Positions 1-26,588 are shown, counted from the stretch's first letter. The stretch is DNA of 34,631 nucleotides from a virus (IMGVR_UViG_3300009426_000626:1-34631); one strand, 5' to 3'. Numbers and translations are program-made. The notes: generated from the sequence alone by a model not told the origin.

Positions 1-104
1 CCAGAAATCTCATAGTCATTTGACTTACAACAGTTTTTAATTCCGTCATAGGGGAATTTAATGTTAACATCTGTAAACATCTTGCTACACACATAACGTG
101 TCAT
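1..104 (-). CDS. 5' part of a probable further N-terminal-twitch radical SAM protein (runs off the window edge; not in the ORF track)
   Basis: ATG at 104-102 overlaps the stop of the QueC-like gene (TAATG). It reads MTRYVCSKMFTDVNIKFPYDGIKNCCKSNDYEIS with no stop before the edge. The C...CC pattern matches the N-termini of the neighbouring twitch-rSAM paralogs. Confidence 0.7.
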   Translation of the reverse strand, partial: MTRYVCSKMFTDVNIKFPYDGIKNCCKSNDYEIS

Positions 105-805
105 TAAAATTTACCAAATGCCCATTTACGTTCACGGCACCACCAACACGTTCCGCATGGTGAGTTTTCGAAGTCCGGATCAAAATCGACCCGCGGTATA
201 GCTTCACAACTACGAGTGAGTGGGAATAATTCATCAAGCACACCATAATGGTTATACATTGCCGCAACAAACCGTTTATCAACATTGACAAAAGGGGTAT
301 AGAAGTCATGTCCGGCGCCACTGTGATGCCTTTCTGTCACATCTGTTGCATCTCTAACAGGCAGCGCGCCGTCGGACATTTCGACCAATTCCCCCCTTGA
401 ATTTTCAACAGATGCAGCAACCTGAGGGTTTGCAGTAATTCCACTTATAATTAAGTCTACTCTTTTATCTGCAAATAACTGAAGCTCAACCTCATGAAAG
501 TATTTTACATCCTGCTTATCCCTATAATAAGAATAATGAATATCAACTGGATTGAAGTCTAATTTATCAATTGTATAGTTAATCACGTCTGCTGCCTTGC
601 GGACATTCCAACGATGCTTTAGATCGTTAGCACATGACATAATCGATACCTTTGTGTCAAGTCGATTGTTTGCTTTAAGGTATTCGCATACCATGTAAAA
701 CAGGATGGCGCTATCTGCACCACCACTTAGATTTACTCCAATTTTCTTAAATTTTGGATCAATATCAAAATCAATTGTTTGTCCAAAGTCGTCAGATAGT
801 TTCAT
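104..805 (-). CDS. QueC-like (7-cyano-7-deazaguanine synthase-like) PP-loop ATPase, divergent
   Basis: PP-loop LSGGADS, PF..vdK..v motif, and C-terminal Zn site TRSC-x16-CGTCWWC. Start moved to MKLSDD (ATG 805) with GAGGG upstream. Confidence 0.75.
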   Translation of the reverse strand: MKLSDDFGQTIDFDIDPKFKKIGVNLSGGADSAILFYMVCEYLKANNRLDTKVSIMSCANDLKHRWNVRKAADVINYTIDKLDFNPVDIHYSYYRDKQDVKYFHEVELQLFADKRVDLIISGITANPQVAASVENSRGELVEMSDGALPVRDATDVTERHHSGAGHDFYTPFVNVDKRFVAAMYNHYGVLDELFPLTRSCEAIPRVDFDPDFENSPCGTCWWCRERKWAFGKF

Positions 806-2060
806 TTCCGTTTCCCTCATCAAATTTGTAGACCAGTGTCTTTAGTGAGCCATTTGAAGTATTAACTTCTTTACGTTCCATAAATTCTGGCTGGATGCCT
901 GGTGCATGTCTCTTAAATATTTCTCTTGCTACATCATCCCTGCTGGCCTTAGGTGCGCAAAGACCACAGCCACAATGGCTTTTAGGGCAGCGAATATACG
1001 GCATGCTGCCTGTATTCATTTTTACTTCTAGGTCGTCACAGTATTCACTAAAATTACTGACATTACAAATAGGGCCAACTTCACCGTTGAGGTTGACCTG
1101 ACAGGTTTGGTGGTGCCAGATCTTGTCAATCTCTTGGTGAATGTAAAGGAAATACCAATTGATCATACAACTCCAACCCTTGAAGTTATTGTTTTGTACA
1201 AAGGTACTTGTCGTCCATTCATCGTCATCGTCATGCATCATATCCAATTTACGACCGCCACAACATGGACGACCAATCTTTTGTCCAACTTTTTTTTCTG
1301 GAGTTGCCATAGCCATAGCAGTACCTGGTGGACCTGCTAACTTCACTGGGTTGCTTGCGGCTATTGCTGGCTTTGCAGAGTCAACTTTCTTTGCGTCCCA
1401 ATAACGTTGCATCCAATCTAATTGTTCCTGCGTATAAGTGTGGACCGTTTTATCCTTTATCCCTTGTTTAATGTCACCCTGGTCACCAATCACTCTAGGT
1501 GTATATGCAACATCATTATAGTCACACCATTCTGCCAAGTCAACACATTCTGTAAAATAGTTTTCTTGCTCGTGGAACATGATGTTAATTTTAAAGCTGT
1601 AACCTTCTGCTTTCATTATTTCTAGATTCTTGCGGACGCGGTCTTTTTGTGCAGGCATACCTTCACAATGCCAGCTCACTGTCGTAAAGTTGGTGTTGGC
1701 CATTACAGTTCGTAGTTTGCGTTCGCTATAGAAGCCATTTGTCGTTAGTGTACGCTTCCAATGTGGATAGTGTTCCTGCAGGTATTCAAGGAACGGAAAG
1801 AACGCTGGGTTAACAGTTGGTTCGCCGCCTGTAAAGCTGGCTGCAACGCGAAACCGTTCGTTACGTTTAGCGTTGTAAATTTCACTGTAACGCTCAAGGT
1901 TGTCTGCTGTGGCAATTAATGATTCAAGGCTAGCTGTATCGCTCCAATTGTTTTTACGGTGGGGTGGGCAATAGCTACATGCAAATGTGCAGCGGCGGCC
2001 CAAGTCCCAAATTACCATAAGCTGTTTTTCTGTCTTATCGTCGATTGCACAAAGGCCCAT
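792..2060 (-). CDS. Radical SAM protein with C-terminal Cys-rich SPASM/twitch-like domain
   Basis: CTFACSYC, FTGGEP and TTNG motifs. C-terminal FKGWSC...C...CPKSHCGCGLC. Confidence 0.9.
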   Translation of the reverse strand: MGLCAIDDKTEKQLMVIWDLGRRCTFACSYCPPHRKNNWSDTASLESLIATADNLERYSEIYNAKRNERFRVAASFTGGEPTVNPAFFPFLEYLQEHYPHWKRTLTTNGFYSERKLRTVMANTNFTTVSWHCEGMPAQKDRVRKNLEIMKAEGYSFKINIMFHEQENYFTECVDLAEWCDYNDVAYTPRVIGDQGDIKQGIKDKTVHTYTQEQLDWMQRYWDAKKVDSAKPAIAASNPVKLAGPPGTAMAMATPEKKVGQKIGRPCCGGRKLDMMHDDDDEWTTSTFVQNNNFKGWSCMINWYFLYIHQEIDKIWHHQTCQVNLNGEVGPICNVSNFSEYCDDLEVKMNTGSMPYIRCPKSHCGCGLCAPKASRDDVAREIFKRHAPGIQPEFMERKEVNTSNGSLKTLVYKFDEGNGNETI

Positions 2061-3385: not shown

Positions 3386-4811
3386 CAAAAATATCTTTCA
3401 TCTCAGGATATATTTCCTCAAACTTAAGGAAGCGAGTTTTATCAATTAATTCAATATACTCTTTCATTTCTGGCATCCGCACTGACCAGTCTTCAGACTT
3501 CATAAAGCTAACCATGCCGTGTAATCTGTCAACACCATAACTTGCTTCACGCCACTTGTCATAATCTACTTTGCCTTTGTGCCAACTTGGCACACCCTTT
3601 TCCCAATTCTCTTCCCACCATGGAATAAACTCTTCGTATTTGCGTTCAACTTCGTCTTTAAACCAAGCAGGCAATACTTTAACGTTGAGGTGAGCTGGAT
3701 GGTAAACAAAGTGGTAGTTAATTCCCCCTGCACCAAACGGCCACATGTTAATCTTCTTAAAGTTTTGCGTTAGCTTCCATTTGAGAAAGTCTGGAATGTA
3801 GTAGATGTTAAGCGCACTCACTGCACAAGCAACTGTTACTTCTACGTTATCAGATGTATCATTGTCTAGGATATGGAATACTTCCTCTGTCCGTTCCCAC
3901 TTGCTTGGGTATCTGATATACTCATTTCGTGACCCGATGTCATCCACACTATAATGGAAACGAACGAGTTTAAACTCCTTCCAAAGCTCGAATAAGTCAT
4001 CACGCCATTCCACACCGTTACTGTTATATCTGAGCTCAAGATTTTTGGCATGGCCTGTGCGGATAGCTTCCTCAAGTATTGTGTAATGTTCCTCAATTAT
4101 GAGACTTTCTCCGCCAGCGAAATAAAGCTGTTGCATGTGCGGTATTTGCTGATTAAATTGTTCCCAGAAGACAGGGTTGTTTTTGTGCCAATTGTAGCTT
4201 GATCCATTTGTACTTCCTTTGTCACGCCATTGAAAACTCTCAGCTAATGACTTATTTTTGATCTGAGGATGGATCTTTTTCCAATCCTTTATCCAACCTG
4301 AGCTGTCATGCGGTGAACACATTACACAAGCAAGCTGGCATTTGCTACCAAAACGTAAGTCAATATATTGTAGTTTTGGTGGCGTGCTACCATCTTCTTC
4401 TGTTTCTTCTAGCAATTGGGCAACGTCAACACGTTCACCCCAATAGCGAGTTTCCCACATGCGTTTACTGTTGTGACCTGCTGCTTCTTCCTTAAAGCAC
4501 TTTGCACAACTAGGTGGGACCTCATTGTTAAGCATCGTTGTGCGAATGTTTCGCATGTAGGTAGAATTCCAACTGGATTCAAAGTCACTTACGTTGAGAT
4601 TATTGGGCCGCCCCTGCTCGTCTTTGAGGACGCCAATGCTGCCACCATTGCTTTTGTCGTTAGTTGGTCCAACGCTACTGGCGTTAGCCGTACAGCATAC
4701 TCGCATTTGACCATCTGGGCGAGTGCTCAAGTGTATCCAAGGTAATATGCAGAAGGTGTCGCTTGGTGTTTTTTTATCGGTCAAAAATTTCTCCAAATTG
4801 GGGGACAACAT
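3375..4811 (-). CDS. Radical SAM protein with N-terminal twitch domain
   Basis: FCILPWIH...VCC...CAKC..E..G..SKR, then DLRFGSKCQLACVMC..SS, YFAGGE and YNSNG. Confidence 0.92.
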   Translation of the reverse strand: MLSPNLEKFLTDKKTPSDTFCILPWIHLSTRPDGQMRVCCTANASSVGPTNDKSNGGSIGVLKDEQGRPNNLNVSDFESSWNSTYMRNIRTTMLNNEVPPSCAKCFKEEAAGHNSKRMWETRYWGERVDVAQLLEETEEDGSTPPKLQYIDLRFGSKCQLACVMCSPHDSSGWIKDWKKIHPQIKNKSLAESFQWRDKGSTNGSSYNWHKNNPVFWEQFNQQIPHMQQLYFAGGESLIIEEHYTILEEAIRTGHAKNLELRYNSNGVEWRDDLFELWKEFKLVRFHYSVDDIGSRNEYIRYPSKWERTEEVFHILDNDTSDNVEVTVACAVSALNIYYIPDFLKWKLTQNFKKINMWPFGAGGINYHFVYHPAHLNVKVLPAWFKDEVERKYEEFIPWWEENWEKGVPSWHKGKVDYDKWREASYGVDRLHGMVSFMKSEDWSVRMPEMKEYIELIDKTRFLKFEEIYPEMKDIFDVK

Positions 4812-6084
4812 CAATAATATTTTGCTGGCGTGATTTGTCTAAGAATCGGGTAAAGGACACGAACTCACCAATATATTTAGTATGATCTTTAGCAGCCATA
4901 AAACGCTGTGTGCTGGACAGAATTTCTGCGGCATGCGCTTTGACATGTTCAGGCAATTCGCTGTCAGCGAATTTCGTATGCCATTCGTCGTAGCACTCTG
5001 CCACTTGCGCTTTCAAAGTCTCTGGCAATGCTTGTATACTCGTGCGATAAGGCTGATGTTGGACGTGTGTAGTTATAACCGGTTTCTTTTTAGATTTGTT
5101 AATATTGGGCAGTCCGTTATGTAACTTCCACCACATAAATTCTGGCAGATGAAACACATTATAGATTGTGATCGTCGCCGCAATCCAAGACGTGACATTG
5201 GGCGCTTTGCCACATAACTCATTGATGAGTCTTAGGTTATGCTCAATTTGTGACCATTTGCTTGGCCACCGTTGATATTCTTGCATTGCACCCATTCCGT
5301 CAATGCTTGCGCCAATACGAACTTCTTTAAAAGCTGGCCAAAACTCTTCTAGGATACGGGTTGGTAAGGTCGTCAAATTTGTATTATATTCTAGCACAAT
5401 GTCCTTGGCTTTGTCAAGCTCAATACATCTCTCTAAGAAATCATATTGGCGTGCAATAATAAGTGGTTCTCCACCTGCCATATAAACGTGTTCCATATTC
5501 ATGATCACGCCGTCTAGACTTTCCCAAAACTGGTCGCTATCGTGCCAATCGTAGTCAGCAGTAAACAATCTGCCCTTTTCATTGCGCGTTAGTTCAACAC
5601 GGCCTTGCGTGTCGTAAAATGCATCTTCGCCAAAAAACTCTGTCCACTCTTTATACCATTGGTGCGAATCGGTTGGTCCGCACATGCGACACGCTAAGTT
5701 ACACATATTGCCAAATCGTAAATCAAAGTAAACAGGTAATGTATAAACCCAGCCAAAATAGGAAGTCATTGCGCCAGCCTGTTCGCCTGACCATTTCCAC
5801 TGTGCCATTTCGTTTTCTCTACGCGAACGCACACCTGCTTCTTCTTCGCTCTTACAGCGTCCGCATTCGTCTGGCCATTCATCATTTAACATAGTTCGTC
5901 TGGTATTGCGCATTAATTCAGCGTTCCAAGCTTCTGACAGGTCATCGCGGCCTGCATTATATGCTTCGCCATTGTCTTTGCGCACAACACCTTGGTTCTT
6001 TGTAACGTTTGCTTGACAGCACAACCGAACATCGCCATTGTTACGCACTGCTTGAAACTTCCACGGAATAGGGCACATTGTCAT
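4774..6084 (-). CDS. Radical SAM protein with N-terminal twitch domain
   Basis: CPIPW...LCC...CGRC..E..G..SRR, then DLRFGNMCNLACRMC, MAGGEP and YNTN. Start MTMCP at 6084 (ATGA overlap, GGAGG RBS). Confidence 0.92.
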   Translation of the reverse strand: MTMCPIPWKFQAVRNNGDVRLCCQANVTKNQGVVRKDNGEAYNAGRDDLSEAWNAELMRNTRRTMLNDEWPDECGRCKSEEEAGVRSRRENEMAQWKWSGEQAGAMTSYFGWVYTLPVYFDLRFGNMCNLACRMCGPTDSHQWYKEWTEFFGEDAFYDTQGRVELTRNEKGRLFTADYDWHDSDQFWESLDGVIMNMEHVYMAGGEPLIIARQYDFLERCIELDKAKDIVLEYNTNLTTLPTRILEEFWPAFKEVRIGASIDGMGAMQEYQRWPSKWSQIEHNLRLINELCGKAPNVTSWIAATITIYNVFHLPEFMWWKLHNGLPNINKSKKKPVITTHVQHQPYRTSIQALPETLKAQVAECYDEWHTKFADSELPEHVKAHAAEILSSTQRFMAAKDHTKYIGEFVSFTRFLDKSRQQNIIDVVPQFGEIFDR

Positions 6085-6872
6085 AGCACAACCCTCCATG
6101 TGTCATTATCCAATCGCACAATTACTTTTCCATCTACCAATACCTCATTTCCAATTCGTTCAAACTGGCGTGGCGGATCTAAATCTTCTGGTTTATGATA
6201 CGTTAATTGTTTGCTATTATTGAGATAGTCTGTTATCACTTTTACATAGTAAGCATGTTGTTCAGTGTAATTAGATGTCGCTGCCTTGTTGAAAATACTT
6301 GACATATGAAAATTGTCTGTCATCCCCGTCGTAAAAGAAAGACGTTTGTCAGAAAAATCATACTCGATTGATTCAATTGGATCGCTTTTTACAGTTAATT
6401 GTGCGCCGTTTACAACTGTAATGACCGTTGGAATCTGGGGTGTATAAAGCCCAGTAAACATCATGCGTGTTTCTCCTGGATGAACAGGTGTTGCTCGATT
6501 CGGTAAACACAAAACAGAAATTGGATGCACAATCCCGCGCCCGCTTAGAATGTCATTGCGCATTTGGTCAAGCGCATTAAACTTACCCATACAAGACCGA
6601 TTCGCGTTAGGAGAATTACTTCTAAATCCGCCGTCTTCTAAATCGTTGTGGAGCCGTGTAAGAATAATTTTGTGTATGTATTCCTCAATTGTGTTTGCCC
6701 AATAGCGAAAGTCCCCATGTTGATCAGCAACAAAGTAATCCCATATTTCTTTAAAAGTGAGATAAGCAATGCGTGTAGTTGTGCCGTGCTCACAGTCGAA
6801 TTTATTTGTCAGTTCTAAAAAGTGTGCAGTGCTTTCAATTTCAATTATTGTACCTTGTTCTAATCGTGTCAT
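6081..6872 (-). CDS. Hypothetical protein, possible ParB/sulfiredoxin-like fold
   Basis: 263-aa ORF with ATGA overlaps at both ends. The segment DILSGRGIVHPISV...VHPGETRMMF loosely resembles the ParB/Srx core. Confidence 0.6.
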   Translation of the reverse strand: MTRLEQGTIIEIESTAHFLELTNKFDCEHGTTTRIAYLTFKEIWDYFVADQHGDFRYWANTIEEYIHKIILTRLHNDLEDGGFRSNSPNANRSCMGKFNALDQMRNDILSGRGIVHPISVLCLPNRATPVHPGETRMMFTGLYTPQIPTVITVVNGAQLTVKSDPIESIEYDFSDKRLSFTTGMTDNFHMSSIFNKAATSNYTEQHAYYVKVITDYLNNSKQLTYHKPEDLDPPRQFERIGNEVLVDGKVIVRLDNDTWRVVL

Positions 6873-7849
6873 GTATTCATTCCTAAATTTGTACCTTGTG
6901 GCTGTCCTAGCTTGTACTTCTTGTCATTTGTCCATACTAATACTTCAGGATCTTCATATAAGAAGTCGCATCCTTTACAATAATCAATCTTATCAAATTG
7001 CTCTGTGTCATGTAAGTGACGCAACTCATTGTATAGTTCACCATTCCATACTTCCTCAAACGTTTGTGTGTCTAGGTGTCCAAGAACACTTTTGCTTTCT
7101 GTTGGTGGCCCTAACACTTGGCAACAAGGTGTTACCGCAGCTCTGTGACCGTCTAGTCCGCCAGCTCGAACTGTAAGCTCGGCGCTAGCTGGACGTCCAC
7201 ATGTGCGCCGCTTGCTAGTGTCTCTTGTATACCCTGGAGTATAGTTGCCGCTCCAATTGTGCATCTTCCAAATATAGGCCTTAGTGCCTACATCGTTAAT
7301 GAAATTGTTTTGGTATTGTGCTATTTCATATTCGGCTTGTTCTGGGTCTAGTATTAAATGATAACTGTCAATACTTGTCTTTGCTTCTACAGACTCTTTA
7401 TATGCTTTAGCCTGCCGCGCATTGTCTTTAATTAATTCAAAGTTATCTTTGCTCATCCATTTGTTATACAATTCACTATTGTATCCAATTACCGAAAAGC
7501 GAATTAACGATAAGCCTGCGTCAATACAATCACGCATGTATTGGTCACGAAAGCGAGCGCCATTGCAATACATATAACTACGAAAGCCGCGACTTGTGCA
7601 AGCGGCAATATATTCCGGTAAGTCTGTTGCCATTGTAGGTTCGCCACTGCCTTCAAGGTTAATAACAGGACTGCCGTACGGCATTATTTGGTCTAGGATA
7701 TCTTCGAATTGCTTTAACGGCATCTTGCGCAGAAAGCTTGGTTCGCGTCCTGTGGATTGCGGACACATTTGACAAGTGTAATTGCAGCCACCAAATACTT
7801 CAATCACTACCCGTTGTAACTGTAAATTGTCAAGGCCTATGCTATTCAA
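6869..7849 (-). CDS. Radical SAM protein with C-terminal SPASM/twitch domain
   Basis: CNYTCQMC and GSGEP. C-terminal CGRP...PCC...LG.L...EEVWNG...CKGC. Probable TTG start at 7849 after GGAG; the ORF extends to 7870. Confidence 0.9.
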   Translation of the reverse strand: MNSIGLDNLQLQRVVIEVFGGCNYTCQMCPQSTGREPSFLRKMPLKQFEDILDQIMPYGSPVINLEGSGEPTMATDLPEYIAACTSRGFRSYMYCNGARFRDQYMRDCIDAGLSLIRFSVIGYNSELYNKWMSKDNFELIKDNARQAKAYKESVEAKTSIDSYHLILDPEQAEYEIAQYQNNFINDVGTKAYIWKMHNWSGNYTPGYTRDTSKRRTCGRPASAELTVRAGGLDGHRAAVTPCCQVLGPPTESKSVLGHLDTQTFEEVWNGELYNELRHLHDTEQFDKIDYCKGCDFLYEDPEVLVWTNDKKYKLGQPQGTNLGMNT

Positions 7850-8924
7850 ATTGTGCTCCAAACGGATCAAATTCTGCGCCGCACTTCATAGCGCATACCC
7901 CCAATTTACCGTTACTGATACTTGTTTTGTCCCAGCTTTCTTCAATACCTTTTAACAATTGACCAGCCATTACGTCTTTTAAGCCATGTTCAATTACACT
8001 AATACCTTCTTTGCCACCGGCCGCATCAATGTGATCCCATATTTGTTCTACGCGATAATCTTTGTGCCACCACTTATACATGCGGCCAGCAGTCCAACAG
8101 CAAGGCATTAATAGTCCTTCTGCTGTAATGAAGATGCTTCGTTCTTTGGCTACTTTGCAACTAACTGCGCAACTGTCGTAATATTCACGCATACTGCCAT
8201 AAGTCTTTTCAATTTCCTTTTGCTTTGATAGCGCAAGGTTTTGATTCTCTGGCTTCTTAGGCTTTTGTATTAGTTGTGTCTCTTCGCCTTTGCGATTTTG
8301 TGCTTGGTGTTTGTCTTTTGATTGACTGTTGGCATTAAAGAAACGCCCTGACTTTTTGAGTTGGAAACGCTCTACACCCCATTCTTCAGCAAGCTGTTTT
8401 GCTTCATCAATTTGGTGTTCGTTGTGGCCAAACACAATAAAGTCCCAGCGGGCACGCCCGCCCGCTTCGATGAATGCCCGCATATTGCGCTCGACTTTGT
8501 CCCATCTGACATTCTGTCTATATAGGTGATTAGTATCAGCGAGGCCATCAACGCTGAAAATAATAGCGCCCATACGACCGGTAACTCCTGCAAGCTCTTT
8601 CCACCAATTCTCATCTTTTGCCCCCGCATTTGTATTCATACTCAACCACATCTTAGGGTTGTGAGTTCTAAAATATTTAAAAACTTCGAGGGTATCTCTG
8701 GCGACAATTGGATCGCCTAAATTACCACACATATACATGGTATCTAATTGCCGAATAAATTCGGGCTCAAAGATCTGTTTACATTGTTCCAGGCTGAGCT
8801 CTGAGTTGTCTATATGTCTGTTGTCGGGTCCGCCGTTCTCATTGCGGTCACACATTGGACACGCTGCCTGACAGCGCTGTGTAATCTCTAAATGAACCGT
8901 TCGGATATCCTCGAAGTTATACAT
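7842..8924 (-). CDS. Radical SAM protein with C-terminal twitch-like domain
   Basis: HLEITQRCQAACPMC, CGNLGDP, NTN and FSVDG. C-terminal C...IFITAEG..MPCCW...CAMKCG. Confidence 0.9.
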   Translation of the reverse strand: MYNFEDIRTVHLEITQRCQAACPMCDRNENGGPDNRHIDNSELSLEQCKQIFEPEFIRQLDTMYMCGNLGDPIVARDTLEVFKYFRTHNPKMWLSMNTNAGAKDENWWKELAGVTGRMGAIIFSVDGLADTNHLYRQNVRWDKVERNMRAFIEAGGRARWDFIVFGHNEHQIDEAKQLAEEWGVERFQLKKSGRFFNANSQSKDKHQAQNRKGEETQLIQKPKKPENQNLALSKQKEIEKTYGSMREYYDSCAVSCKVAKERSIFITAEGLLMPCCWTAGRMYKWWHKDYRVEQIWDHIDAAGGKEGISVIEHGLKDVMAGQLLKGIEESWDKTSISNGKLGVCAMKCGAEFDPFGAQFE

Positions 8925-9714
8925 GTATTTGAATATTCTCTATTAATAAATCAGCAACAATTTTATGTGTGTTAGGACCAGGGTGAACTCCATCTCTTGC
9001 AAAATCAACAGTTCTAGTATAAGGAATTTGCAGTGTTTCAGACGAGTCAGGAGTTGCAGTCCAATTAAAAACTGGTATGTCACGATCACTTAACCATTTG
9101 GTTACAATATGAAATGAGCGCATAGCTTCATAATAAAAAATTTCTTCATCCAATAGAACAATATTCTCAAAAATTTTAAATCTTATGTCTGCTTCATCAA
9201 AATGCACATTACATATATGTTCTGTTCCGTTACCAAACAGCGTAAACCTAGTAATTGGCGGCCATTCAAGTATCATAAACGCAGGTAATTTTGGTGTATT
9301 TGTTAATAAATGTAACACTTGTTCTTTAACATAATTACAGCTTGCACCTGGTTGTCCGATATTGATAATTGGAATACCGTTATCTTGCTCAAGTAACGAA
9401 TCAAATCTATCTTCAACGTGTAAAGACGATCCCCAAGTATGACTTGATCCTATCGCTACTCCATATTTTTCATAGTCTGCTGGGTACACAAACTTTGACC
9501 TGTATCCCATCTCATTTATTGTATATATAATAGGATCATGCTCGTGATTTAAATATCTGTCAGATATTTTACCAGCCTGCACGGCGATATCAAAAAGTTC
9601 ACGTTCCCCCTCAAACCACGTATATGGGACAACTGGCCCATATCTTTTGATATAATTATGGGCTAAATTATTATTAGCTTTATCTCTAAATGATTGCATT
9701 TTATTTCTGTTCAT
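8917..9714 (-). CDS. SGNH/GDSL-family hydrolase or acyltransferase-like protein
   Basis: Block I IGSSHTWG, block II NIGQPGAS, block V DGVHPG. Confidence 0.75.
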   Translation of the reverse strand: MNRNKMQSFRDKANNNLAHNYIKRYGPVVPYTWFEGERELFDIAVQAGKISDRYLNHEHDPIIYTINEMGYRSKFVYPADYEKYGVAIGSSHTWGSSLHVEDRFDSLLEQDNGIPIINIGQPGASCNYVKEQVLHLLTNTPKLPAFMILEWPPITRFTLFGNGTEHICNVHFDEADIRFKIFENIVLLDEEIFYYEAMRSFHIVTKWLSDRDIPVFNWTATPDSSETLQIPYTRTVDFARDGVHPGPNTHKIVADLLIENIQIHV

Positions 9715-9934
9715 TGTTTACTAACCTTACTTCAACGCCTGGACCTACTTGATCAGGCCAGCCGCCATATTCACCAATGTACCATTCAATCACAGCACGG
9801 TACCAATTGTGACTGTTGTGGTGTGCTTGTCTGTTGAATTGCCAAATGTTGTCATTACTCGCAACTATTGCACTCAACGCCCTTGCGCTAAGTGTTTGCA
9901 TTTCTCTAACAGATAGTTTGTCTAAGCTTCTCAT
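9701..9934 (-). CDS. Small hypothetical protein (77 aa, Trp/His-rich)
   Basis: Exactly fills the gap between its neighbours, with an ATGA overlap at 9931-9934. Confidence 0.7.
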   Translation of the reverse strand: MRSLDKLSVREMQTLSARALSAIVASNDNIWQFNRQAHHNSHNWYRAVIEWYIGEYGGWPDQVGPGVEVRLVNNEQK

Positions 9935-11584: not shown

Positions 11585-11600
11585 GTTTGTCCTTTGTTTA

Positions 11601-11629: not shown

Positions 11630-11715
11630 TCGTAGATAAATGGATCCTGTTTGGCCAACTTCTTGATCCGGCGCTTACGCTTCCATTTAGCTATTTTATT
11701 CTTAATCCATTTCAT
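11626..11715 (-). CDS. 29-aa basic peptide MKWIKNKIAKWKRKRRIKKLAKQDPFIYD, coupled to the carbamoyltransferase
   Basis: ATG overlaps the carbamoyltransferase stop (ATGA at 11715-11712). TGA at 11628-11626. Below the ORF-track size cutoff. Confidence 0.7.
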   Translation of the reverse strand: MKWIKNKIAKWKRKRRIKKLAKQDPFIYD

Positions 11716-13208: not shown

Positions 13209-13234
13209 TAAACGTCGTCTCCTGCATGTACGGA

Positions 13235-14036: not shown

Positions 14037-14062
14037 GTAATATCTCCTTTGCTTACAATACC

Positions 14063-14091
14063 AATATAGCAGCAAAGTGCCTTGGTGTCAA
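14063..14091 (-). promoter_or_regulatory. sigma70-type promoter upstream of the secreted HExxH gene
   Basis: TTGACA-17 nt-TATATT on the minus strand. Confidence 0.85.
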
Positions 14092-14099
14092 GCCTTTTC

Positions 14100-16422: not shown

Positions 16423-18577
16423 TCTTTTCTCCATTAAATTGTGAAATATTGCCACTCAATTTAAACTCTATTGGTGCAAATGACATATCTTCTCTTTTTA
16501 TTTCATGTTCTTTAACCCTTGAATCATCATTTGTTGTTTCATGACTGAATGAATGATTACATGAGAATTCAAAATTACCATCAGCGTCTACATTCCATAT
16601 AACTTCACCATCATATACTGTTGCTAATCCCCCGCCGAATTCTTCGAGGTCCTTCTCTGGATCATTAATGATTTTGAATGTGTGGGCGCCATAAACTTTG
16701 TATGTGACCCAGACATAAGGCAGATATTCGTTGGCCAGGCTAGATGCTAATTGTTCCTGTGGCGTTGCACCCTTAAAAACATTGAAATTTTGATTCTGTT
16801 CTTGTGGTATATAGTCTATAAATTGTCCAGGATTTTCTTGTTCAAACTCAAAGAACTGATCCATATTTGGTCGCTGTTGTGCGTTAATGACTGTTCCATC
16901 AGAATCTGTCACCATCATCTTAAGCCATTGGTTTGCAAATTTTAGCCGAATAAATCGATGTATAACTGTATTAACATAGTCTTGAGTGTACCAATTTGAC
17001 ATAAATGTATTGTCCCACGGCTGCTCTTTCCAGGCAATATCATATTTATCCCAGTTAATGTGTATGTCGCTTAATACTGCATCACCGCAAGTCATACCTG
17101 GACTGAGGACAAAGACCCATTTACGAGAATTATATAGTACATGAAGACTGTGTAGCCATTCAACAGGTCGTTCTGTTGGAAATCCAATTACCCAATTTAC
17201 ATGGGTCTCAATACCAGACGCGCGGCAATCTCGCAAGTTATTTTCAATTTCCCAGACTTTTATCCGTTTCTTCATATCAAGTAGAACTTTTTCACTACCT
17301 GCCTCAACACCAAAACTCAGCAAGCTGCACCCACTTGCTGCGACGGCATCAAAAAATTCACGGTCCATTCTACCATCACACCTAGCATAACTGTTCCATC
17401 GTATGTCAAGTCCGTCCGCAACGATTTGATCGACAAGTTTTCTGAACTCTTTAAGATTGCCGTTGATTAAGCTATCAACAAACCAAAATCGTTTTATTCT
17501 ATACTTTTTAATCTGATGTTTCATTTCTTCGATGACACGAATGCTTTCGCGCCAACGGAATTTCCAAAACCAAGTCTCTGAACAGAAGGTACATTGCGCC
17601 ACACATCCCCGACTTGATTCGATACTCACACCATCAGGGTGTCTATATAGATTCAAAGAGAAATCACTATAATCAGGAAATGGCAATTGATTTAAGTCAA
17701 GTCTACTCTGAGTATTACCAAAACTATAAGGACCAGCTTCAATAGGATACTCGTCGAGATTTTCTAAAAGATTGAGTATTTCTTCTTCACCTTCACCAAT
17801 TACACGATAGTCAACATTATTGTAAAATTCCTGTAACTCTGGCCGCAATTTTTCTGTTGCCTCGCCGTCCATCCAATCAGATAATACCTCAGGGCCGCCA
17901 ATAACAATCCGAATATTTGGGTTGGCCTTTTTCAATTCGTTCATCACATATCCTGTTGGATGTAAATTGGTATTATAGACACTAAACCCAACAAGTCCAG
18001 GTTCAGTTTCTAAAATTTCAAGAACTAGGTTATCAAGAAATGGTTTCAGTGTAGGGTGTATTTCTATATCATAGGCTGGCAAATACCAATGGTCATGATA
18101 TATGGCATCCCACATATCCTTCTTGAGTTTTCCTTTAAGGAAATGATATCCTTCTATATTAGCATCATGAACATTAATCTCATAACCGTTTTCGCGCAGC
18201 AATGAGGTCAGTCTGGCCACATTGTATGGCGGGAAGATAACTCCCCAAGCAGGACATACAACTAAAGATAATCTGGTGTCTTTTAGTGGCTTGTTTAATT
18301 CAGACCAATAATCATATCCTCTTTCGTTTTCAAAAGGATCTTCACTCCAATATGTGTATGGACGAACACCATCAAATTCTGATTCAGACCCCAAATGACT
18401 GTTGGCATGCCGCATCTTTTCTTCATGCTCAATTACCTTGAGAATGATTTGATCGCGGTCCTCGCTTCCAAAGTTAGGGGTATCAACTTTTTTTTGGGGC
18501 ACCTGTTGTTCCTGTTGTTTTTGGTGCTTTTTTAATAGCTGCGAGTCGGGTGCGCTTACGTCTTTTTTCTTTGTCAT
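16343..18577 (-). CDS. Cobalamin-binding radical SAM protein (class B methyltransferase-like)
   Basis: B12-binding-domain pattern (PPY..A.L, DAN, VGFS, IVIGGP, GEGE), then SSRGCVAQCTFC, FVDS, FGVEAGS and IGFPTE. Confidence 0.9.
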   Translation of the reverse strand: MTKKKDVSAPDSQLLKKHQKQQEQQVPQKKVDTPNFGSEDRDQIILKVIEHEEKMRHANSHLGSESEFDGVRPYTYWSEDPFENERGYDYWSELNKPLKDTRLSLVVCPAWGVIFPPYNVARLTSLLRENGYEINVHDANIEGYHFLKGKLKKDMWDAIYHDHWYLPAYDIEIHPTLKPFLDNLVLEILETEPGLVGFSVYNTNLHPTGYVMNELKKANPNIRIVIGGPEVLSDWMDGEATEKLRPELQEFYNNVDYRVIGEGEEEILNLLENLDEYPIEAGPYSFGNTQSRLDLNQLPFPDYSDFSLNLYRHPDGVSIESSRGCVAQCTFCSETWFWKFRWRESIRVIEEMKHQIKKYRIKRFWFVDSLINGNLKEFRKLVDQIVADGLDIRWNSYARCDGRMDREFFDAVAASGCSLLSFGVEAGSEKVLLDMKKRIKVWEIENNLRDCRASGIETHVNWVIGFPTERPVEWLHSLHVLYNSRKWVFVLSPGMTCGDAVLSDIHINWDKYDIAWKEQPWDNTFMSNWYTQDYVNTVIHRFIRLKFANQWLKMMVTDSDGTVINAQQRPNMDQFFEFEQENPGQFIDYIPQEQNQNFNVFKGATPQEQLASSLANEYLPYVWVTYKVYGAHTFKIINDPEKDLEEFGGGLATVYDGEVIWNVDADGNFEFSCNHSFSHETTNDDSRVKEHEIKREDMSFAPIEFKLSGNISQFNGEKNEDSIDTSPKRQRAVAKEELLRLQQP

Positions 18578-21568: not shown

Positions 21569-21579
21569 ATGTTATTCCA

Positions 21580-22587
21580 TTATTCATTATCTACCTCATA
21601 GCGTTCTGTTGGTAGGACTTTTTTAGTCATAATATCAAAATTGCAGTGGCACATACTTTTGTTACAACGCACTGCGCGAGTTGGCCATTGTATAGATTCA
21701 GGGCGTTTGATGTTGCCAAATGACCCACCAACACGGCACCAACCACGCATAATTGAGCCGTCAAAGTCAACTACAATTTGTTCAATGCCTGCCCAGCAAT
21801 CCCATCCTTTCCAATTATTAGTCTTATCGTTTATAAAGCGGTGTGCTGAACTATTTTCACTTAATCCATTCACTTCATCAATCATATCCATGCTGCCACG
21901 ATATAGATTTTTGCTATGGTCACGGGTGTGTTCAATTTTGATACCTAAATTATGCCATTGTCGATCAATGTACGCAATCTGCTCGTCAGTGTAGCTAAAC
22001 AGCTCTTCACCAAAGTCGATGATGAGAGGTTGCAGCGCGAGGCTGATGTCCTTTATGGCTATCACTCTCTCAGCCACGTCCTGACACGTATCCCACAACT
22101 TAGGGTCATAGTGCATCATAACGTTGACATGTGTGCGGCACACCTTGCTCATAATTTCAACCACTTTAAGGAAGTGTTCAGGATCACTGTGTTCTGCATG
22201 AAAGCTGAGGCAAGCGTGATCAAACTTTTCCTTGTTCTGTTCCCACCAACGTAACGTGCGGCTTGCATTTGATATCATTCCAATGTCATGCCCAATACCT
22301 TTAATGTACTCTGCGCACTTGACAAAGTCCTTCCAAAGTGTTACTTCTCCACCAGTAAACTCAAAGTAAACTTTACGTGGGCGATAATGCGTAACACACT
22401 CATCAATGAAGCGTTGGATGACCTCAAAATCGTTCCAACCAAAGCTGCCATCGTTTAAAATACTAGGACAATAGCTGCAATTGAAATTACACATGTTGCC
22501 TAGATTCCAATTGACGACAACCCAGTCTTTAGCTGAGGCGTGGTGATGGTCTAGTTTATTGTAGAATTCTTGTGGTCCTAGCGGCAT
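21580..22587 (-). CDS. Radical SAM protein with C-terminal SPASM/twitch-like domain
   Basis: WNLGNMCNFNCSYC, FTGGE, ISN and LSFH. C-terminal WKGWDCWAG...DG...GWC...CNKSMCHCNFD. Confidence 0.9.
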   Translation of the reverse strand: MPLGPQEFYNKLDHHHASAKDWVVVNWNLGNMCNFNCSYCPSILNDGSFGWNDFEVIQRFIDECVTHYRPRKVYFEFTGGEVTLWKDFVKCAEYIKGIGHDIGMISNASRTLRWWEQNKEKFDHACLSFHAEHSDPEHFLKVVEIMSKVCRTHVNVMMHYDPKLWDTCQDVAERVIAIKDISLALQPLIIDFGEELFSYTDEQIAYIDRQWHNLGIKIEHTRDHSKNLYRGSMDMIDEVNGLSENSSAHRFINDKTNNWKGWDCWAGIEQIVVDFDGSIMRGWCRVGGSFGNIKRPESIQWPTRAVRCNKSMCHCNFDIMTKKVLPTERYEVDNE

Positions 22588-23582
22588 TATTGTCCCATTT
22601 CATTAATCACATCCAGCTCACGTGCCATCGGGTGTACACGGGCTGGATTGATGTAAACTTCCTTAAAGAAACGGCTACCCTGATCATTTAGATCAGCAAG
22701 TTCAAGTCCCAATTCGTTACGAAGTTGTTCACCAAGAGTGCGTATTTCTTCTTCTAGTTCGTACACATTCCATTCATAGCCAGTTCGTTCACAAAGACGA
22801 TTGCCTCCATTATCACTATTTGGTATAAATTTTGGTGCTATATCATTAGCCCAGTATTTATTAAGCCATTCAAAGTCTCTGACAGAGCGCCAATCCCACT
22901 CATCGCGACGCAAATTTGTCATTACAGTCCCAAGACGTGCGCCATAAATTGCCCATAACCCATTATGCGCATCTGCACCAACAGTCTGCCAAACTAGCAA
23001 GCGTTGGTAATTCTTACGATGAATTTTCTTGATATTATGCTTACCAACAACGTCTCCATTATCGAGTGTCATCTTGCACCCTTCTCTGAAGCCCGCTCTC
23101 CAAGCTTGCAGTGGGCTCGCATTGTTGTAGACGTGGCTGTATACGTTGTTCATTTGAACATAGTTTATATTCCAACAAAAGTCAACCTGTGCTTGCAAAT
23201 TATTTTCTGGTGCTGCTTCGTGTGTGCGCATGTTGTTGATGACGTGAACTGGCCAACATTTGATGCCGCCATTGCCATATACAAGTCCATTGATTTCATT
23301 CTTTGCAGCCCAGCTCATAACATCAGCTTTGCCTACTTTATCTATATCAATTTCTAGATTGAAGAACTCTGGATCGACGATGTTGTCTGCGTCCACTGTG
23401 ATTATACGTTGTGTGTCAACTAGTGCCGCTGCGGCTTTGTGTGCAGCATCACTACCGTAAACGCCATGGCTTCGTTTTGCCCAAGGACATTTGCTCAATA
23501 GGTCATGCCAGTTATCGTCTGCATTGGGCTCGTCATAACTAATGAAGACGATATCTATATCATTAATTGGAGTGAGTGTCAT
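22587..23582 (-). CDS. GT-A fold (GT2-like) glycosyltransferase
   Basis: DIVFISYDEP and DxD motif TVDADN. Paralog of 10877..11584. Confidence 0.75.
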   Translation of the reverse strand: MTLTPINDIDIVFISYDEPNADDNWHDLLSKCPWAKRSHGVYGSDAAHKAAAALVDTQRIITVDADNIVDPEFFNLEIDIDKVGKADVMSWAAKNEINGLVYGNGGIKCWPVHVINNMRTHEAAPENNLQAQVDFCWNINYVQMNNVYSHVYNNASPLQAWRAGFREGCKMTLDNGDVVGKHNIKKIHRKNYQRLLVWQTVGADAHNGLWAIYGARLGTVMTNLRRDEWDWRSVRDFEWLNKYWANDIAPKFIPNSDNGGNRLCERTGYEWNVYELEEEIRTLGEQLRNELGLELADLNDQGSRFFKEVYINPARVHPMARELDVINEMGQ

Positions 23583-24531
23583 TTACGTTCCTCTTATTCA
23601 ATTTGAGTGCAGGATTCTGGTATAATATGTTTACATCCATAATGTCGAAATCTACTGCAATTCGTTCTTTATTTCCCATTCTTAGCTTATTGACATCAAT
23701 TATATGCTTAGAAATGTAATGGTCTGTTGTTTTTCCTGTAAAATATAATGGCAAGTAGCGGTAATATAACCCAGCAGAGGTGAGCTGTTCTGCGCTCACT
23801 AAACTTACAATATCTACATACTTACCATCTTGAATCAAACTAACATGAGAGTCAGCGTCATCTGTTACACATTGTATCTTATGACTCCAACGATGATCGT
23901 CTATTTCCTTAGGCTTTACATAATCTTCATCGAACGATTCAAAGTAATAGTTTTTAAATTGTCGTCGAGTTAATACAGAAACTTTGCTTGCTGTAATATG
24001 TCTAATGATGTCATCCATTGGCGCCGCAAAACAATTACTATTGATTAATTCCATTGCGTCAATAGTAATTGTTTTAAGAAGGTAGTCTGGGTTATTGTTT
24101 TTAATTACATAGAATTTGAAATCAATCTTTTCATTTAACAATATTTCATTTTGCATATTTCTTTTAATCAATTTATGAACCATATCTTTATTCACTTCAA
24201 ATGTTAAATAATGGTTCTTAGTGTAATGCCTGACACGTATGTCCCATTCCTTTATTTTAATTTGAGGAATAATTGACAGTTTGTCTTCTTTATTGCGCAG
24301 TCTAAGATATTCATTCTTTGCAACTAACTGGTCATTATCAATAACGTAGTTTGTTCCTGCCGCTTGTCCACGTAGTATACGATATGCATTTTTATCATCT
24401 GTTACGATAAATGGCGCAAGAGAATCAGACCGGGGATTACATCCAACAGATATAATCTCTCCTGTCCAATCATTAAAATAGATATAGTAATTAGGCTTTG
24501 GTTTTATTCTTGGTGTTACTGAAATCGTCAT
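23563..24531 (-). CDS. Hypothetical phage protein
   Basis: ~322-aa AT-rich ORF overlapping both neighbours; no motif recognised. Confidence 0.75.
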   Translation of the reverse strand: MTISVTPRIKPKPNYYIYFNDWTGEIISVGCNPRSDSLAPFIVTDDKNAYRILRGQAAGTNYVIDNDQLVAKNEYLRLRNKEDKLSIIPQIKIKEWDIRVRHYTKNHYLTFEVNKDMVHKLIKRNMQNEILLNEKIDFKFYVIKNNNPDYLLKTITIDAMELINSNCFAAPMDDIIRHITASKVSVLTRRQFKNYYFESFDEDYVKPKEIDDHRWSHKIQCVTDDADSHVSLIQDGKYVDIVSLVSAEQLTSAGLYYRYLPLYFTGKTTDHYISKHIIDVNKLRMGNKERIAVDFDIMDVNILYQNPALKLNKRNVNDTHSN

Positions 24532-25351
24532 CAAGTTGCTTTATTAAATTAGGCGTAATGACCTCTGGGTCACCGTAATGGAAAATGCCGTGCAGTCTGT
24601 AATTATTAACTTTGATATTTAAATCACTAGTGATCCATATATTCTGAGACTCAGACCAATTAAACGGTTGATCCTTATCAGCATCAAATAGGAAGTCAAT
24701 TTCAAGGTCTGTGTATTTAAATTTATCGGCTATTGCATATTGTTCATGCAAGCTATCAGCAACAATATTAGTCATTAGCGTAAAGTCAAAGTCATCTGCC
24801 TTAACTTCCGACAGATAACGGTCATAAATTTCTCTCCAAGAACGGAACATAGGATCCGCCATTTTGAAGAACTCGCTTGACTTTTGTTCTTTTCTGAAGT
24901 AGATTACCCCAGAGTTGAATGCTTTGATATTGTTTTTATCCTGCGCGATAAATTTCTTGTCGTTACGAATATTGTCTCCTCGATAGTTATGTGCTGTTGC
25001 AAACACAATGTCATCGATATCTCGCATATCCCAAAGGCTCTTGATATTATCAATTGCTAATGAGTAAGTATTAATTATCATGCTCTCGTCGAATGGTGTG
25101 CAGTGATACAGTTGCCAAAAATCAATGAACATATTGTGGTGACTTGTATCACTACGTCCATATGGGAGTTCAACAATATAATCAAATCCACTTTCATATC
25201 GACGTGGGACATGGTCAAACTTATGCACCACAACACATGTTTCACAGTCCGGATCTGCTAATTTGAGACTGATACTTAAAGCATACGCGCATTTAATATT
25301 CTGCGTTTTTCCAACGTCATCGACACCAAGAAATATATATCCGTTTGTCAT
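24491..25351 (-). CDS. GT8-like glycosyltransferase homolog with degenerate DxD motif
   Basis: AYALSISLK, FDYIV, TPFDESMIINTY, FNSGVIYF and FHY motifs. Confidence 0.65.
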   Translation of the reverse strand: MTNGYIFLGVDDVGKTQNIKCAYALSISLKLADPDCETCVVVHKFDHVPRRYESGFDYIVELPYGRSDTSHHNMFIDFWQLYHCTPFDESMIINTYSLAIDNIKSLWDMRDIDDIVFATAHNYRGDNIRNDKKFIAQDKNNIKAFNSGVIYFRKEQKSSEFFKMADPMFRSWREIYDRYLSEVKADDFDFTLMTNIVADSLHEQYAIADKFKYTDLEIDFLFDADKDQPFNWSESQNIWITSDLNIKVNNYRLHGIFHYGDPEVITPNLIKQLDDDFSNTKNKTKA

Positions 25352-26244
25352 CTGTTATCCAATTCAAGTGCAGCCATAATATCATCAAAATTGCGATCTA
25401 ATGCTCGTTTGTTCATGACATGAACATTTTCTTTTTGTATAAGAGTAAGGGTGTCTTTCCAATTCTCTTGACGATCATTGACCAAATACCCCCATTCATC
25501 TACAGTGTTAATTGAAACAATATCGTCGTGTTGACTCATGTTTATCATTGATGTAGGGAATTTGTCGATTAGATCTCCATGCCCCATACCATTTAACATA
25601 TGCGTTGCTATACTTACACAATAATCTGTGCGATACATTTTGCCAGGGAAACCATAATGAAATTTGTAGAAATCGTAATTCTTAGATATATGTTCCCATG
25701 TCTCAAAAAATAGCTTTGTTAACGATTGGGTCTTGTCAAAATATATAGCAGTGCTCCAAAGCATTGGTATACCATAATCATGTAAATGTTGCTGTGGCAA
25801 TGCTGGCGGCTCACCAATCAATGATTCCGCAGATTGAAATAACGTGACTGCATTATCTGTATCAAAAACGTATGCAAGCGAATCATTTTGCACAATATAA
25901 TCTATATCCAATAACAATGTTTTGTCATAGGGTGTATATTGAAATACCTTATGTTTGTTGCCGTTCTTAAATTCACTTGTGAATTTATGGTATGGTGAAT
26001 CATAATGTGTTCGTTGATTGACACGAATGTCAGGATCAACCAAAACAATCTCGTCGAAAGCCTGTTCAGCATATTGCCAATAGGAACTAGTTTTAGACCA
26101 TTCCCATGTGCCTGCATCAGTGATTAAGCAAATTTCGTGACCAGGCATATAGCGTTTAGCATACCTAGCCGCAATAGTAGACAATTTTACATAATCAATT
26201 TCTGTCGTGTTGTATGCAAAAAATACAATGCCTGTAGTCGTCAC
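25348..26244 (-). CDS. GT8-like glycosyltransferase homolog
   Basis: GIVFFAYN....DY, FDEIV, TPYDKTLLLDIDY (DxD), WSTAIYF and YRTDY. GTG start in a GTGA overlap. Confidence 0.72.
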   Translation of the reverse strand: MTTTGIVFFAYNTTEIDYVKLSTIAARYAKRYMPGHEICLITDAGTWEWSKTSSYWQYAEQAFDEIVLVDPDIRVNQRTHYDSPYHKFTSEFKNGNKHKVFQYTPYDKTLLLDIDYIVQNDSLAYVFDTDNAVTLFQSAESLIGEPPALPQQHLHDYGIPMLWSTAIYFDKTQSLTKLFFETWEHISKNYDFYKFHYGFPGKMYRTDYCVSIATHMLNGMGHGDLIDKFPTSMINMSQHDDIVSINTVDEWGYLVNDRQENWKDTLTLIQKENVHVMNKRALDRNFDDIMAALELDNR

Positions 26245-26588
26245 CAGTCCATAGCCTTTTTAACACTTCGTGCTTTTGATAGTTTCTTCATTTGTGTCGA
26301 ATACTCATTTATAGCAGTAAAGTAAACGTTCATCAATTCTTCCTTGAAACCAGGCAGGTCGTCGATTTCAATCGGATTGTCGTTGCGATCTAATAGTATC
26401 GCATCAGTGTGTCCGTCATTAATCAACATATTGACAAATGCAATTGTAGTTTCATCAGCAAAAAATAGCCCATTGTTCTTGTGCACAATGCGCATGGTTT
26501 CAAATCTACGTGTTACTGTAACGCGGCGGTTTTCAATAGTGGCGCGATAGTTGGAAAAGGTCAGTGCCTTTTCAAGTCGTTCATCCAT
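26241..26588 (-). CDS. Small hypothetical phage protein (possibly tail-fibre-assembly-like)
   Basis: 115 aa with strong TAAGGAG RBS. First gene after a sigma70 promoter. The function is a guess from position. Confidence 0.75.
   Translation of the reverse strand: MDERLEKALTFSNYRATIENRRVTVTRRFETMRIVHKNNGLFFADETTIAFVNMLINDGHTDAILLDRNDNPIEIDDLPGFKEELMNVYFTAINEYSTQMKKLSKARSVKKAMDW

Follow-up and report, generated by a model that had tools for sequence, protein, structure and literature searches.

What would a phage do with a long array of radical S-adenosylmethionine (SAM) enzymes? The question is raised by IMGVR_UViG_3300009426_000626, a marine giant-phage fragment of 34,631 nt, which is a whole virus record and is analysed here at full length (the window). 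Its 32 long open reading frames (ORFs) all lie on the minus strand, and 26 complete, co-oriented genes at 104-26588, the majority overlapping their neighbours, form a cluster of radical SAM and sugar-enzyme genes behind the last virion gene. An original prediction, made from the sequence, read this cluster as one pathway for a heavily modified glycan. We find that it is an island with a two-part anatomy: a fixed core, encoding a 115-aa protein (s115), two glycogenin-like glycosyltransferases (GT1 and GT2), an immunoglobulin (Ig)-domain protein (23563-24534) and a GT-A enzyme (GT3), and a hypervariable cassette. The explanation we favour, at a probability of roughly 0.55, is that this jumbo-myophage island carries out a predicted cytoplasmic glycosylation of baseplate or fibre proteins together with radical editing of the sugars.

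The island is viral and keeps its place behind a virion gene

A chimera of phage and bacterial DNA, which would have undone the original prediction, was ruled out by a single contig of the independent sequencing run X6 that bridges the junction of virion genes and cluster (25871-27974), by even depth in runs X6 and X7 with all 30 bins of 9000-28999 covered, and by the same linkage in relatives. Base composition is even along the 34.6-kb window. Co-orientation stood for 26 of the 26 genes, and 64 bases, not the 65 bp given earlier, separate the cluster from the last virion gene. RNA run X20 yielded short contigs in 16 of 30 bins, which does not show transcription. A cellular island was also rejected, as the only 3 loci found in cellular genomes (185,579 species) are each flanked by phage virion genes. 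Three jumbo-phage contigs of 44, 335 and 153 kb (L095, L096 and L097) are binned in two marine bacterial metagenome-assembled genomes of GTDB. On the 335-kb carrier contig the island lies behind baseplate wedge genes, and the contig encodes homologues of the capsid, portal, terminase, sheath and polymerase of the Ralstonia jumbo myophage RsoM2USA.

GT3 was used as the anchor for relatives, of which at least 555 were confirmed among at least 602 candidate IMG/VR stretches, and loci were compared in the best 80 GT3-anchored stretches, a set biased to close relatives. The order s115-GT1-GT2-Ig-domain protein-GT3 was held in 70 of the 71 loci with enough upstream DNA, free of inserts in 65, so that the objection that the genes might be scattered in relatives fails. 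In 68 of 72 loci s115 follows the same virion gene family. The search tool estimates that the core occurs in about 1100 IMG/VR stretches. Among 50,697 annotated phage records, GT1, GT3, s115 and the cassette gene GT4 occur together only in RsoM2USA, which is also the one record with s115; the neighbouring virion family is found in 35. Relatives of 28121-29185 were likewise counted in 35 records, and in one of these the annotation is virion structural protein. In this cultured phage the core keeps its order and again lies behind the tail genes, with one twitch enzyme, GT4 and a methyltransferase-like gene. Another twitch enzyme, the carbamoyltransferase and three SGNH-like genes are located 90 kb away. 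The available text of its paper leaves the island genes hypothetical (PMC8504454). In literature coverage that left out most subscription papers, no characterisation of the island was found. We conclude that the island is viral, genuine, widespread and uncharacterised.

The core combines glycosyltransferases with two non-enzymes

The original prediction counted four GT-A-like genes, and all four gained backing from fold, paralogy or profile, with the reservation that the window copy of GT2 (24491-25351) lacks the DxD motif. A confident model of GT3 (predicted local distance difference test, pLDDT, 91) adopts a GT-A fold, the best match having Z 10.4 and a root-mean-square deviation (rmsd) of 3.1 over 142 aligned residues, and the near-tied structural matches include the viral enzymes A197 of Sulfolobus turreted icosahedral virus (STIV; Z 9.1) and the capsid-glycosylating enzyme of PBCV-1 (Z 8.2). 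At least 7222 protein clusters, out of 8000 candidates that were scored, belong to this large family. The GT2 family profile matches glycogenin over its first 103 positions (E 4e-9), and GT1 is a paralogue of GT2 (HHalign 99.2%). The DxD motif is invariant in the alignments of GT1, GT3 and GT4 and is present in only 23 of 64 members of the GT2 family. GT1 keeps DxD and GT2 mostly loses it, as would be expected if an active enzyme were paired with an inactive one. Profile searches of the PDB with GT3, GT1, the Ig-domain protein, s115 and the methyltransferase-like protein returned nothing significant, and Pfam and PHROG scans of the s115, Ig-domain protein and GT2 alignments gave no consistent family. 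A predicted complex of GT2, GT3 and the Ig-domain protein scored 0.17 (mark 0.32), which speaks neither for nor against binding.

The radical SAM enzymes form old, recurring subfamilies

The ten complete CxxxCxxC radical SAM genes of the original prediction were borne out: all ten ORFs match PF04055, six above the Pfam cut-off and four under it (E 1.5e-6 to 3.2e-5). These four are the ones matched by NF033640 (N_Twi_rSAM, cut-off 170 bits), in which the twitch cysteines lie N-terminal of the radical SAM motif. The cut-off is passed by 3375-4814, 4774-6099 and 18483-20195 (349-413 bits), and 2060-3388 has the Cys pattern at 148 bits. A probable eleventh gene also stood, since the twitch profile gives the truncated ORF at 1-104 a score of 7.8 bits and its best shuffle 5.4. 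The ORF at 20195-21568 is related to those at 21580-22587 and 792-2060, with the auxiliary Cys domain at opposite ends, and the two forms are frequently paired in relatives.

BtrN-type sugar dehydrogenases carry their twitch domain C-terminally. The four twitch proteins of the window have it at the N-terminus, in the NF033640 arrangement and not in that of BtrN, to which they had been likened. The 6869-7870 protein does possess a C-terminal twitch, but its BtrN match covers the core only (E 8e-6); over that core its sequence is nearest to the small-molecule enzymes BlsE, DesII and BtrN.

Contigs of relatives hold up to 20 NF033640 matches, with matches above cut-off in 24 of 25 records versus 0 of 14 control genomes, and thus the window is a typical and not an extreme instance of the island. 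A tree was built from 172 twitch proteins, made up of 10 added ones and the 162 of 203 proteins of relatives that remained once near-identical ones were dropped; its clade-depth cut is arbitrary and some of its clades are poorly supported. The paralogues of each locus scatter in this tree into separate deep clades (113 clade slots for 116 genes across 26 loci), and the deep clades reappear as ordered sets across genomes. Therefore, the twitch enzymes appear to be old specialised subfamilies rather than recent duplicates. NF033640 is a catalogue entry without a known reaction; here it is tied to a fixed glycosyltransferase (GT) core.

We infer that these enzymes act on sugars. It is also conceivable that the core glycosylates virion proteins and the radical SAM enzymes modify the polypeptide itself, by cross-links, epimerisation or methylation resembling that of RiPPs (ribosomally synthesised peptides that carry post-translational modifications). 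RiPP-maturase models are the top NCBIfam matches for the SPASM/twitch and B12 enzymes, and many cassettes hold only radical SAM genes in their first 10 kb. However, these matches fall far below cut-off, no precursor-peptide array or RiPP recognition element was seen, and sugar enzymes are interleaved with radical SAM genes in 16 of 50 cassettes; we consider a polypeptide target quite unlikely.

The cassette varies from locus to locus

Downstream of GT3, gene content differs between loci. In the 50 loci with about 10 kb of downstream DNA, radical SAM genes are present in 47 (median 4, maximum 7), an SGNH-like gene in 10 and a sulfotransferase-like gene in 4, all counted over the first 10 kb. 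Relatives' cassettes further encode epimerases, UDP-glucose dehydrogenases, DegT aminotransferases, sugar C-methyltransferases, cupins and sulfotransferases, and the majority of 124 cassette representatives have no Pfam match. Cassettes that are free of radical SAM genes (L076, L080, L081 and L004) hold GT4, a methyltransferase-like gene, a short-chain dehydrogenase, an Asp/Asn hydroxylase, TauD and a fatty-acid desaturase, and non-haem iron oxygenases may stand in for the radical SAM enzymes there. Genes for a phosphopantetheinyl transferase and an AMP-binding enzyme are present in some cassettes (right after GT3 in L047, L051 and L059; L055:17359-18000), hinting at acyl-carrier chemistry.

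The carbamoyltransferase claimed for the window is firm in profile searches. The CMP-nonulosonate synthetase keeps its PF02348 family match, and its specific name becomes less certain: 15715-16455 scores 51 bits for a cut-off of 205.7 and lies far below the PseF and KdsB cut-offs, and no NeuB-type synthase was found in a scan of 30 ORFs of this fragmentary contig. Profile checks of the sulfotransferase, SGNH, QueC and methyltransferase labels left them at the level of motif or family, weaker than had been implied; the methyltransferase-like protein (9931-10917) has no Pfam, NCBIfam, PHROG or PDB match. Neither the two VHPG-motif proteins nor the 77-aa ORF, the SGNH-like, DUF6639-like and cytidylyltransferase genes have a homologue among the 2417 ORFs compared. 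The VHPG motif is shared by the orphans 6081-6872 and 14840-15721, and the latter shows a clustered divergent allele in runs X6-X8. Loose contig ends of run X6 at 14034-14065, by the DUF6639-like gene, suggest a site that varies among strains.

Given a fixed core, a variable cassette, at least one probably unrelated insert (the DUF6639-like gene) and the location of the RsoM2USA carbamoyltransferase and second twitch gene elsewhere in that genome, "one pathway" is too strong a description. Taken further, the island might be a hotspot where auxiliary genes for iron-sulfur (Fe-S) and sugar chemistry gather without contributing to a shared product. That DUF6639 insert, inserts of thymidylate synthase and dihydrofolate reductase (DHFR) genes, several internal promoter-like motifs and genomes with twitch genes at several places fit such a hotspot, and radical SAM arrays have been interpreted as Fe-S metabolism in the available text of PMC5332604. 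Nevertheless, the five-gene order is invariant, the genes overlap and the radical SAM subfamilies recur in ordered sets, which makes a hotspot very improbable. The same source (Nishimura et al. 2017) describes twelve radical SAM genes in one marine T4-like genome, and the word "glycosyl" is absent from its available text (PMC5332604). Such arrays in marine T4-like phages are already published; the present analysis adds, for NF033640, the tie to a fixed GT core and the recurring sets of old subfamilies.

Promoter-like motifs set the island apart from the tail genes

Before s115, a sigma70-like motif was found in 63 of 72 relatives and a late-type motif ([AC]TAAATA) in 55, with both in 46 and neither in 0, over backgrounds of 1.5% and 1.4%, respectively. 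The label "late-type" follows the T4 consensus. The virion gene V191 has the late motif only (43 of 65 versus 0 sigma70-like). Of the two, the window has just the sigma70-like one intact before s115; additional motifs lie ahead of its DUF6639-like, carbamoyltransferase and GT4 genes. Judged from these motifs, the island is its own transcription unit and not simply transcribed by extension of the tail operon, and it is likely on both early and late in infection.

Early expression would also suit a soluble or host-directed product, such as a modified nucleotide-sugar, a nucleoside, a small glycan or a cytoplasmic modification of host proteins, with the effect of redirecting the host or weakening its defences. 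The sigma70-like motif is more conserved than the late one, every enzyme is soluble, three radical SAM enzymes have weak viperin-family matches, and the SPASM-type enzyme is nearest to BlsE, DesII and BtrN as described above. These viperin and small-molecule matches are far under family cut-offs, however, and a soluble product leaves the fixed position after one virion family, the late-type motif and the chaperone-like non-enzymes unexplained. Such a product is unlikely, although it keeps an appreciable share of probability.

DNA and the host surface are disfavoured as acceptors

Known glycosylation routes for phage DNA need a hydroxymethyl base, and one alternative is hypermodification of phage DNA, with glycosyl or carbamoyl groups placed on hydroxymethyl-pyrimidines and elaborated by radical SAM enzymes. 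A related phage carbamoyltransferase of the NodU family modifies 5-hydroxymethylcytosine (hmC), and in the available part of that account carbamoyltransferase and thymidylate synthase, marked by Asp at position 177, co-occurred only on modified contigs, and GT-flanked carbamoyltransferases sat on unmodified contigs (PMC8670742). The island shares phage GTs and a NodU-type carbamoyltransferase with the T4-type glucosyl-hmC and 5-carbamoyloxymethylcytosine systems of that source, but no Asp-type thymidylate synthase homologue lies beside it or on the 335-kb carrier. DHFR and canonical thymidylate synthase genes are found at or near the boundary of core and cassette, right behind GT3, in six loci (L014, L025, L029, L030, L045 and L056), and ThyX in some others; all six synthases are canonical Asn-type. 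In the loci examined, no Asp-type dCMP hydroxymethylase linked to a GT or carbamoyltransferase was found. The 335-kb carrier, which has no terminal repeat and is of unproven completeness, holds ThyX only and has no match to T4 gp42, gp56, AGT or BGT or to RsoM2USA ORF10.

RsoM2USA itself carries a T4-type DNA modification locus at 1890-8497 (L086, L127), 210 kb from the core, with a dCMP-hydroxymethylase (gp42)-like gene (E 7e-25, Asp-type motif), an adjoining BGT-like gene (E 9e-42) and kinase-like and deaminase-like neighbours, so that DNA glucosylation in this phage is explained without the island. ORF10 is termed a putative thymidylate synthase in the available text of its paper (PMC8504454). 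TET/JBP oxygenases were found in 0 of 25 and 0 of 5 records, most of them partial, by a search run without a positive control, which leaves a TET-type route conceivable; other 2-oxoglutarate oxygenases occur in relatives' cassettes. The median isoelectric point of the GT1-3 families, about 5, counts against a DNA acceptor. Avoidance of 6-mer palindromes, strong at some sites in the 335-kb carrier (mean log2 -0.48) and not seen in RsoM2USA (-0.04), was not used as a test of DNA modification since a 59-kb T4 control also avoids them (-0.33). Because the 335-kb carrier lacks a hydroxymethylase and T4-type GTs and RsoM2USA has them at a separate locus, DNA hypermodification is disfavoured and appears improbable.

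Remodelling of the host cell surface, for seroconversion or superinfection exclusion, is suggested by enzyme types like those of O-antigen and capsule loci. Seroconversion cassettes of the GtrABC or Wzy/Wzx type rely on integral membrane flippases, polymerases and transferases. In contrast, all window enzymes are soluble, the 26 genes encode no clear transmembrane protein (one has a single marginal window), only 5 of 641 cassette ORFs of relatives have at least two hydrophobic windows, three of these being desaturases, and no flippase, polymerase or priming transferase was found among the 124 cassette representatives. Given the lack of membrane proteins, host seroconversion is the least probable of the alternatives and hardly credible.

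Virion proteins are the favoured acceptor

The GT genes of the island are linked to structural genes, as in virion glycosylation systems, and the two non-enzymes of the core offer weak leads to fibres. Before the structure search was made we already took s115 and the N-terminus of the Ig-domain protein to resemble the two halves of tail-fibre assembly chaperones. An AlphaFold2 model of the latter (pLDDT 87.8) has a 60-residue domain and two Ig-like sandwiches, not an enzyme fold. Over residues 11-72 the sole match within the top 50 structural matches is Mu Tfa (5yvq_B; Z 3.8, rmsd 2.6, 55 aligned), a Z that falls inside the background range. Foldseek with this model gave only FnIII-type matches and uncharacterised phage proteins. 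For s115 the nearest named family in the Atlas is DUF4376 (0.90), and HHalign against 150 DUF4376 sequences gave P 4% and E 0.01, above 30 shuffles. A DUF4376 profile run over the 2417 ORFs placed s115 members at 23 of the top 30 ranks. Single-sequence HHalign with Mu Tfa and one DUF4376 protein as targets found nothing significant. DUF4376 is a domain of tested tail-fibre chaperones in the available text of PMC10579305 and PMC7882524. Like Mu gp50, Alteromonas V22 gp27 and A5 gp9, the island proteins are encoded right after a fibre-like gene; they differ in that the likeness, which is below significance, is split across two genes within a GT operon, one of them with two Ig-like domains. These likenesses are consistent with fibres as the acceptor but weak.

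Several further observations weigh against glycosylation of virion proteins. The chaperone likenesses are weak, with an HHalign P of 4% and 3.4%, the DUF4376 profile places none of the s115 members under E 0.1, and Pfam PF14301 was not recovered from an alignment of 56 s115 members. Nucleotidyltransferases tie with GT-A enzymes among the fold matches of GT3. A recognisable nucleotide-sugar enzyme occurs in only 16 of the 50 cassettes (first 10 kb) versus radical SAM genes in 47 of 50, and 3 of the 50 have no radical SAM gene at all. The sigma70-like motif, at least as conserved as the late one and the sole one before s115 in the window, suits an early, non-virion role. The richness of the fibres in Thr and Ser, offered originally as evidence, says nothing, because at 0.15-0.22 it is the same as in T4 gp34-37 (0.15-0.20). 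In the available text on RsoM2USA, ten virion bands are reported without remark on glycosylation, and glycans were apparently not sought (PMC8504454). The island is known here from its genes, and glycan, acceptor and activity are predictions.

Nonetheless, the position, the late-type motif, the chaperone-like adaptors, the likeness to protein-priming GTs and the serotype-like variation all point to a virion acceptor, none of them as proof. Glycan building and tailoring aimed at the virion, as originally proposed, is still the best-supported reading, shorn of the Thr/Ser argument, the single pathway and the BtrN-type twitch enzymes.

The proposed mechanism builds on observed content, order, folds, conservation and promoter-like motifs. 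The early/late promoter would place the enzymes ahead of and throughout tail assembly, and s115 with the Ig-domain protein, like halves of a Tfa-type chaperone, would tether the transferases to folding fibres. The glycogenin-like GT1, with the DxD-less GT2, would prime the protein, and GT3 and GT4 would extend the glycan. The cassette would supply and decorate sugars by cytidylyl activation and by carbamoyl, sulfate, acyl and methyl groups, and the radical steps would be oxidation, deoxygenation or C-methylation of sugars. Swapped cassettes would yield surface "serotypes" that alter how the phage adsorbs, how stable it is or how it evades grazers and defences at the host surface. A bolder form of this proposal, which we hold tentatively and doubt more than we trust, is that one widespread group of aquatic jumbo myophages uses chaperone-derived adaptors to target a cytoplasmic glycosylation machine of its own to nascent fibres, with exchangeable sets of up to 20 oxygen-sensitive radical SAM enzymes writing serotype-like surface chemistry in sugars unknown from any cell.

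Relation to known glycosylation systems

In mycobacteriophages, Freeman et al. in 2023 reportedly found virion glycosylation, with glycans on capsid and tail-tube C-termini. As in the island, phage-encoded GTs lie there beside structural genes, and there they decorate virion proteins. The island differs: its four GT-like genes are unrelated and Pfam-less, adaptors resembling chaperones and as many as 20 N-twitch matches per contig come in addition, and its target is a predicted one. The GTs of chlorovirus PBCV-1 and STIV and the glycosylation of giant-virus fibrils exemplify virus-encoded cytoplasmic sugar synthesis and tailoring. The GT-A fold of GT3 is also that of STIV A197 and of the enzyme that glycosylates the PBCV-1 capsid, but the island has a bacterial host, and identity is only 11-13% and tied with other GT-A folds. 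We know of no radical SAM array that is part of these systems. By analogy, the island would work like mycobacteriophage or chlorovirus virion glycosylation, and it may extend what is known of glycosylation by viral enzymes, with a radical SAM arm that could turn out to be a system of a new kind. For moraphages, which are aquatic jumbo phages, the core is described as containing four putative GT orthogroups (PMC12619734), a point in common with the island, and radical SAM enzymes go unmentioned in the available text of that account.

Features of the window

Coordinates are collected in Table 1. In the last virion protein (26653-28119), the tip residues 419-482 form an E1_FCCH-like domain (PF16190, E 1.7e-10). 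Its homologue in L003 has 415 aa, and the alignment spans 410 residues only.

Table 1. Features of the 34,631-nt window, ordered from the virion genes to the contig end (PAPS, 3'-phosphoadenosine 5'-phosphosulfate).
Position	Strand	Feature	Basis
26653..34630	-	Six virion genes, baseplate/fibre-like, candidate acceptors	Profile matches; two late-type motifs (29789-29795, 31174-31180)
26610..26638	-	Promoter motif of sigma70-like type, within the gap of 64 bp	Motif scan
26241..26588	-	Core gene 1 (s115), 115 aa, no family, likely adaptor	In 73/80 loci; weak DUF4376 likeness
25348..26244	-	Core GT1, glycogenin/GT8-like	Invariant DxD (D113, D115) and HxMNK
24491..25351	-	Core GT2, glycogenin/GT8-like paralogue, likely pseudo-enzyme partner	Window copy without DxD
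23563..24534	-	Core gene 4, non-enzyme, likely adaptor	Weakly Mu Tfa-like N-terminal domain, two Ig/FnIII-like sandwiches
22587..23582	-	Core GT3, GT-A fold, Pfam-less large phage family	Invariant DxD
21580..22587	-	Radical SAM, C-terminal auxiliary Cys domain	CxxxCxxC and PF04055
20195..21568	-	Radical SAM, N-terminal auxiliary Cys domain	CxxxCxxC and PF04055
18483..20195	-	N-twitch radical SAM	NF033640, 349 bits
16343..18577	-	B12-dependent radical SAM, likely methyltransferase	PF02310 above cut-off
15715..16455	-	NeuA/KdsB-family cytidylyltransferase	PF02348, E 5.5e-17
14840..15721	-	VHPG-motif protein, no family	No profile match
14100..14843	-	Sulfotransferase-like	PAPS-loop motifs; NodH E 0.012
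13284..14075	-	DUF6639-like, likely unrelated insert	Signal-peptide-like start, HExxH, own sigma70-like motif 14063-14091
11712..13250	-	NodU/CmcH-type carbamoyltransferase	Firm profile matches; late-type motif 13270-13276
10877..11584	-	GT4, DxD-bearing GT3 paralogue	30% identity, E 1e-25; sigma70-like motif 11601-11629
9931..10917	-	Methyltransferase-like, travels with GT4	GxWYG motif alone
9701..9934	-	77-aa protein, no family	No profile match
8917..9714	-	SGNH/GDSL-like, weak	PF00657, E 0.0078
7842..8924	-	Radical SAM	CxxxCxxC and PF04055
6869..7870	-	Radical SAM, C-terminal SPASM/twitch domain	Profile match
6081..6872	-	VHPG-motif protein, no family	No profile match
4774..6099	-	N-twitch radical SAM	NF033640, 358 bits
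3375..4814	-	N-twitch radical SAM	NF033640, 413 bits
2060..3388	-	N-twitch-like radical SAM	NF033640, 148 bits, under cut-off
792..2060	-	Radical SAM, C-terminal auxiliary Cys domain	CxxxCxxC and PF04055
104..823	-	QueC/PP-loop-like, weak	E 1e-4, C-terminal Cys motif only
1..104	-	Start of probable eleventh (N-twitch) radical SAM, cut by contig end	7.8 bits; best of 500 shuffles 5.4

Implications

RsoM2USA is a cultured carrier with a minimal cassette, and its island-free cultured relatives PA5oct, XacN1 and Atu_ph07 provide natural contrasts. If the virions are decorated, coats of variable chemistry would be found on a large proportion of aquatic jumbo phages. In that case many genes now called "auxiliary metabolic" would be virion-building genes, and the large orphan family NF033640 would gain a substrate class and, likely, a new radical chemistry.

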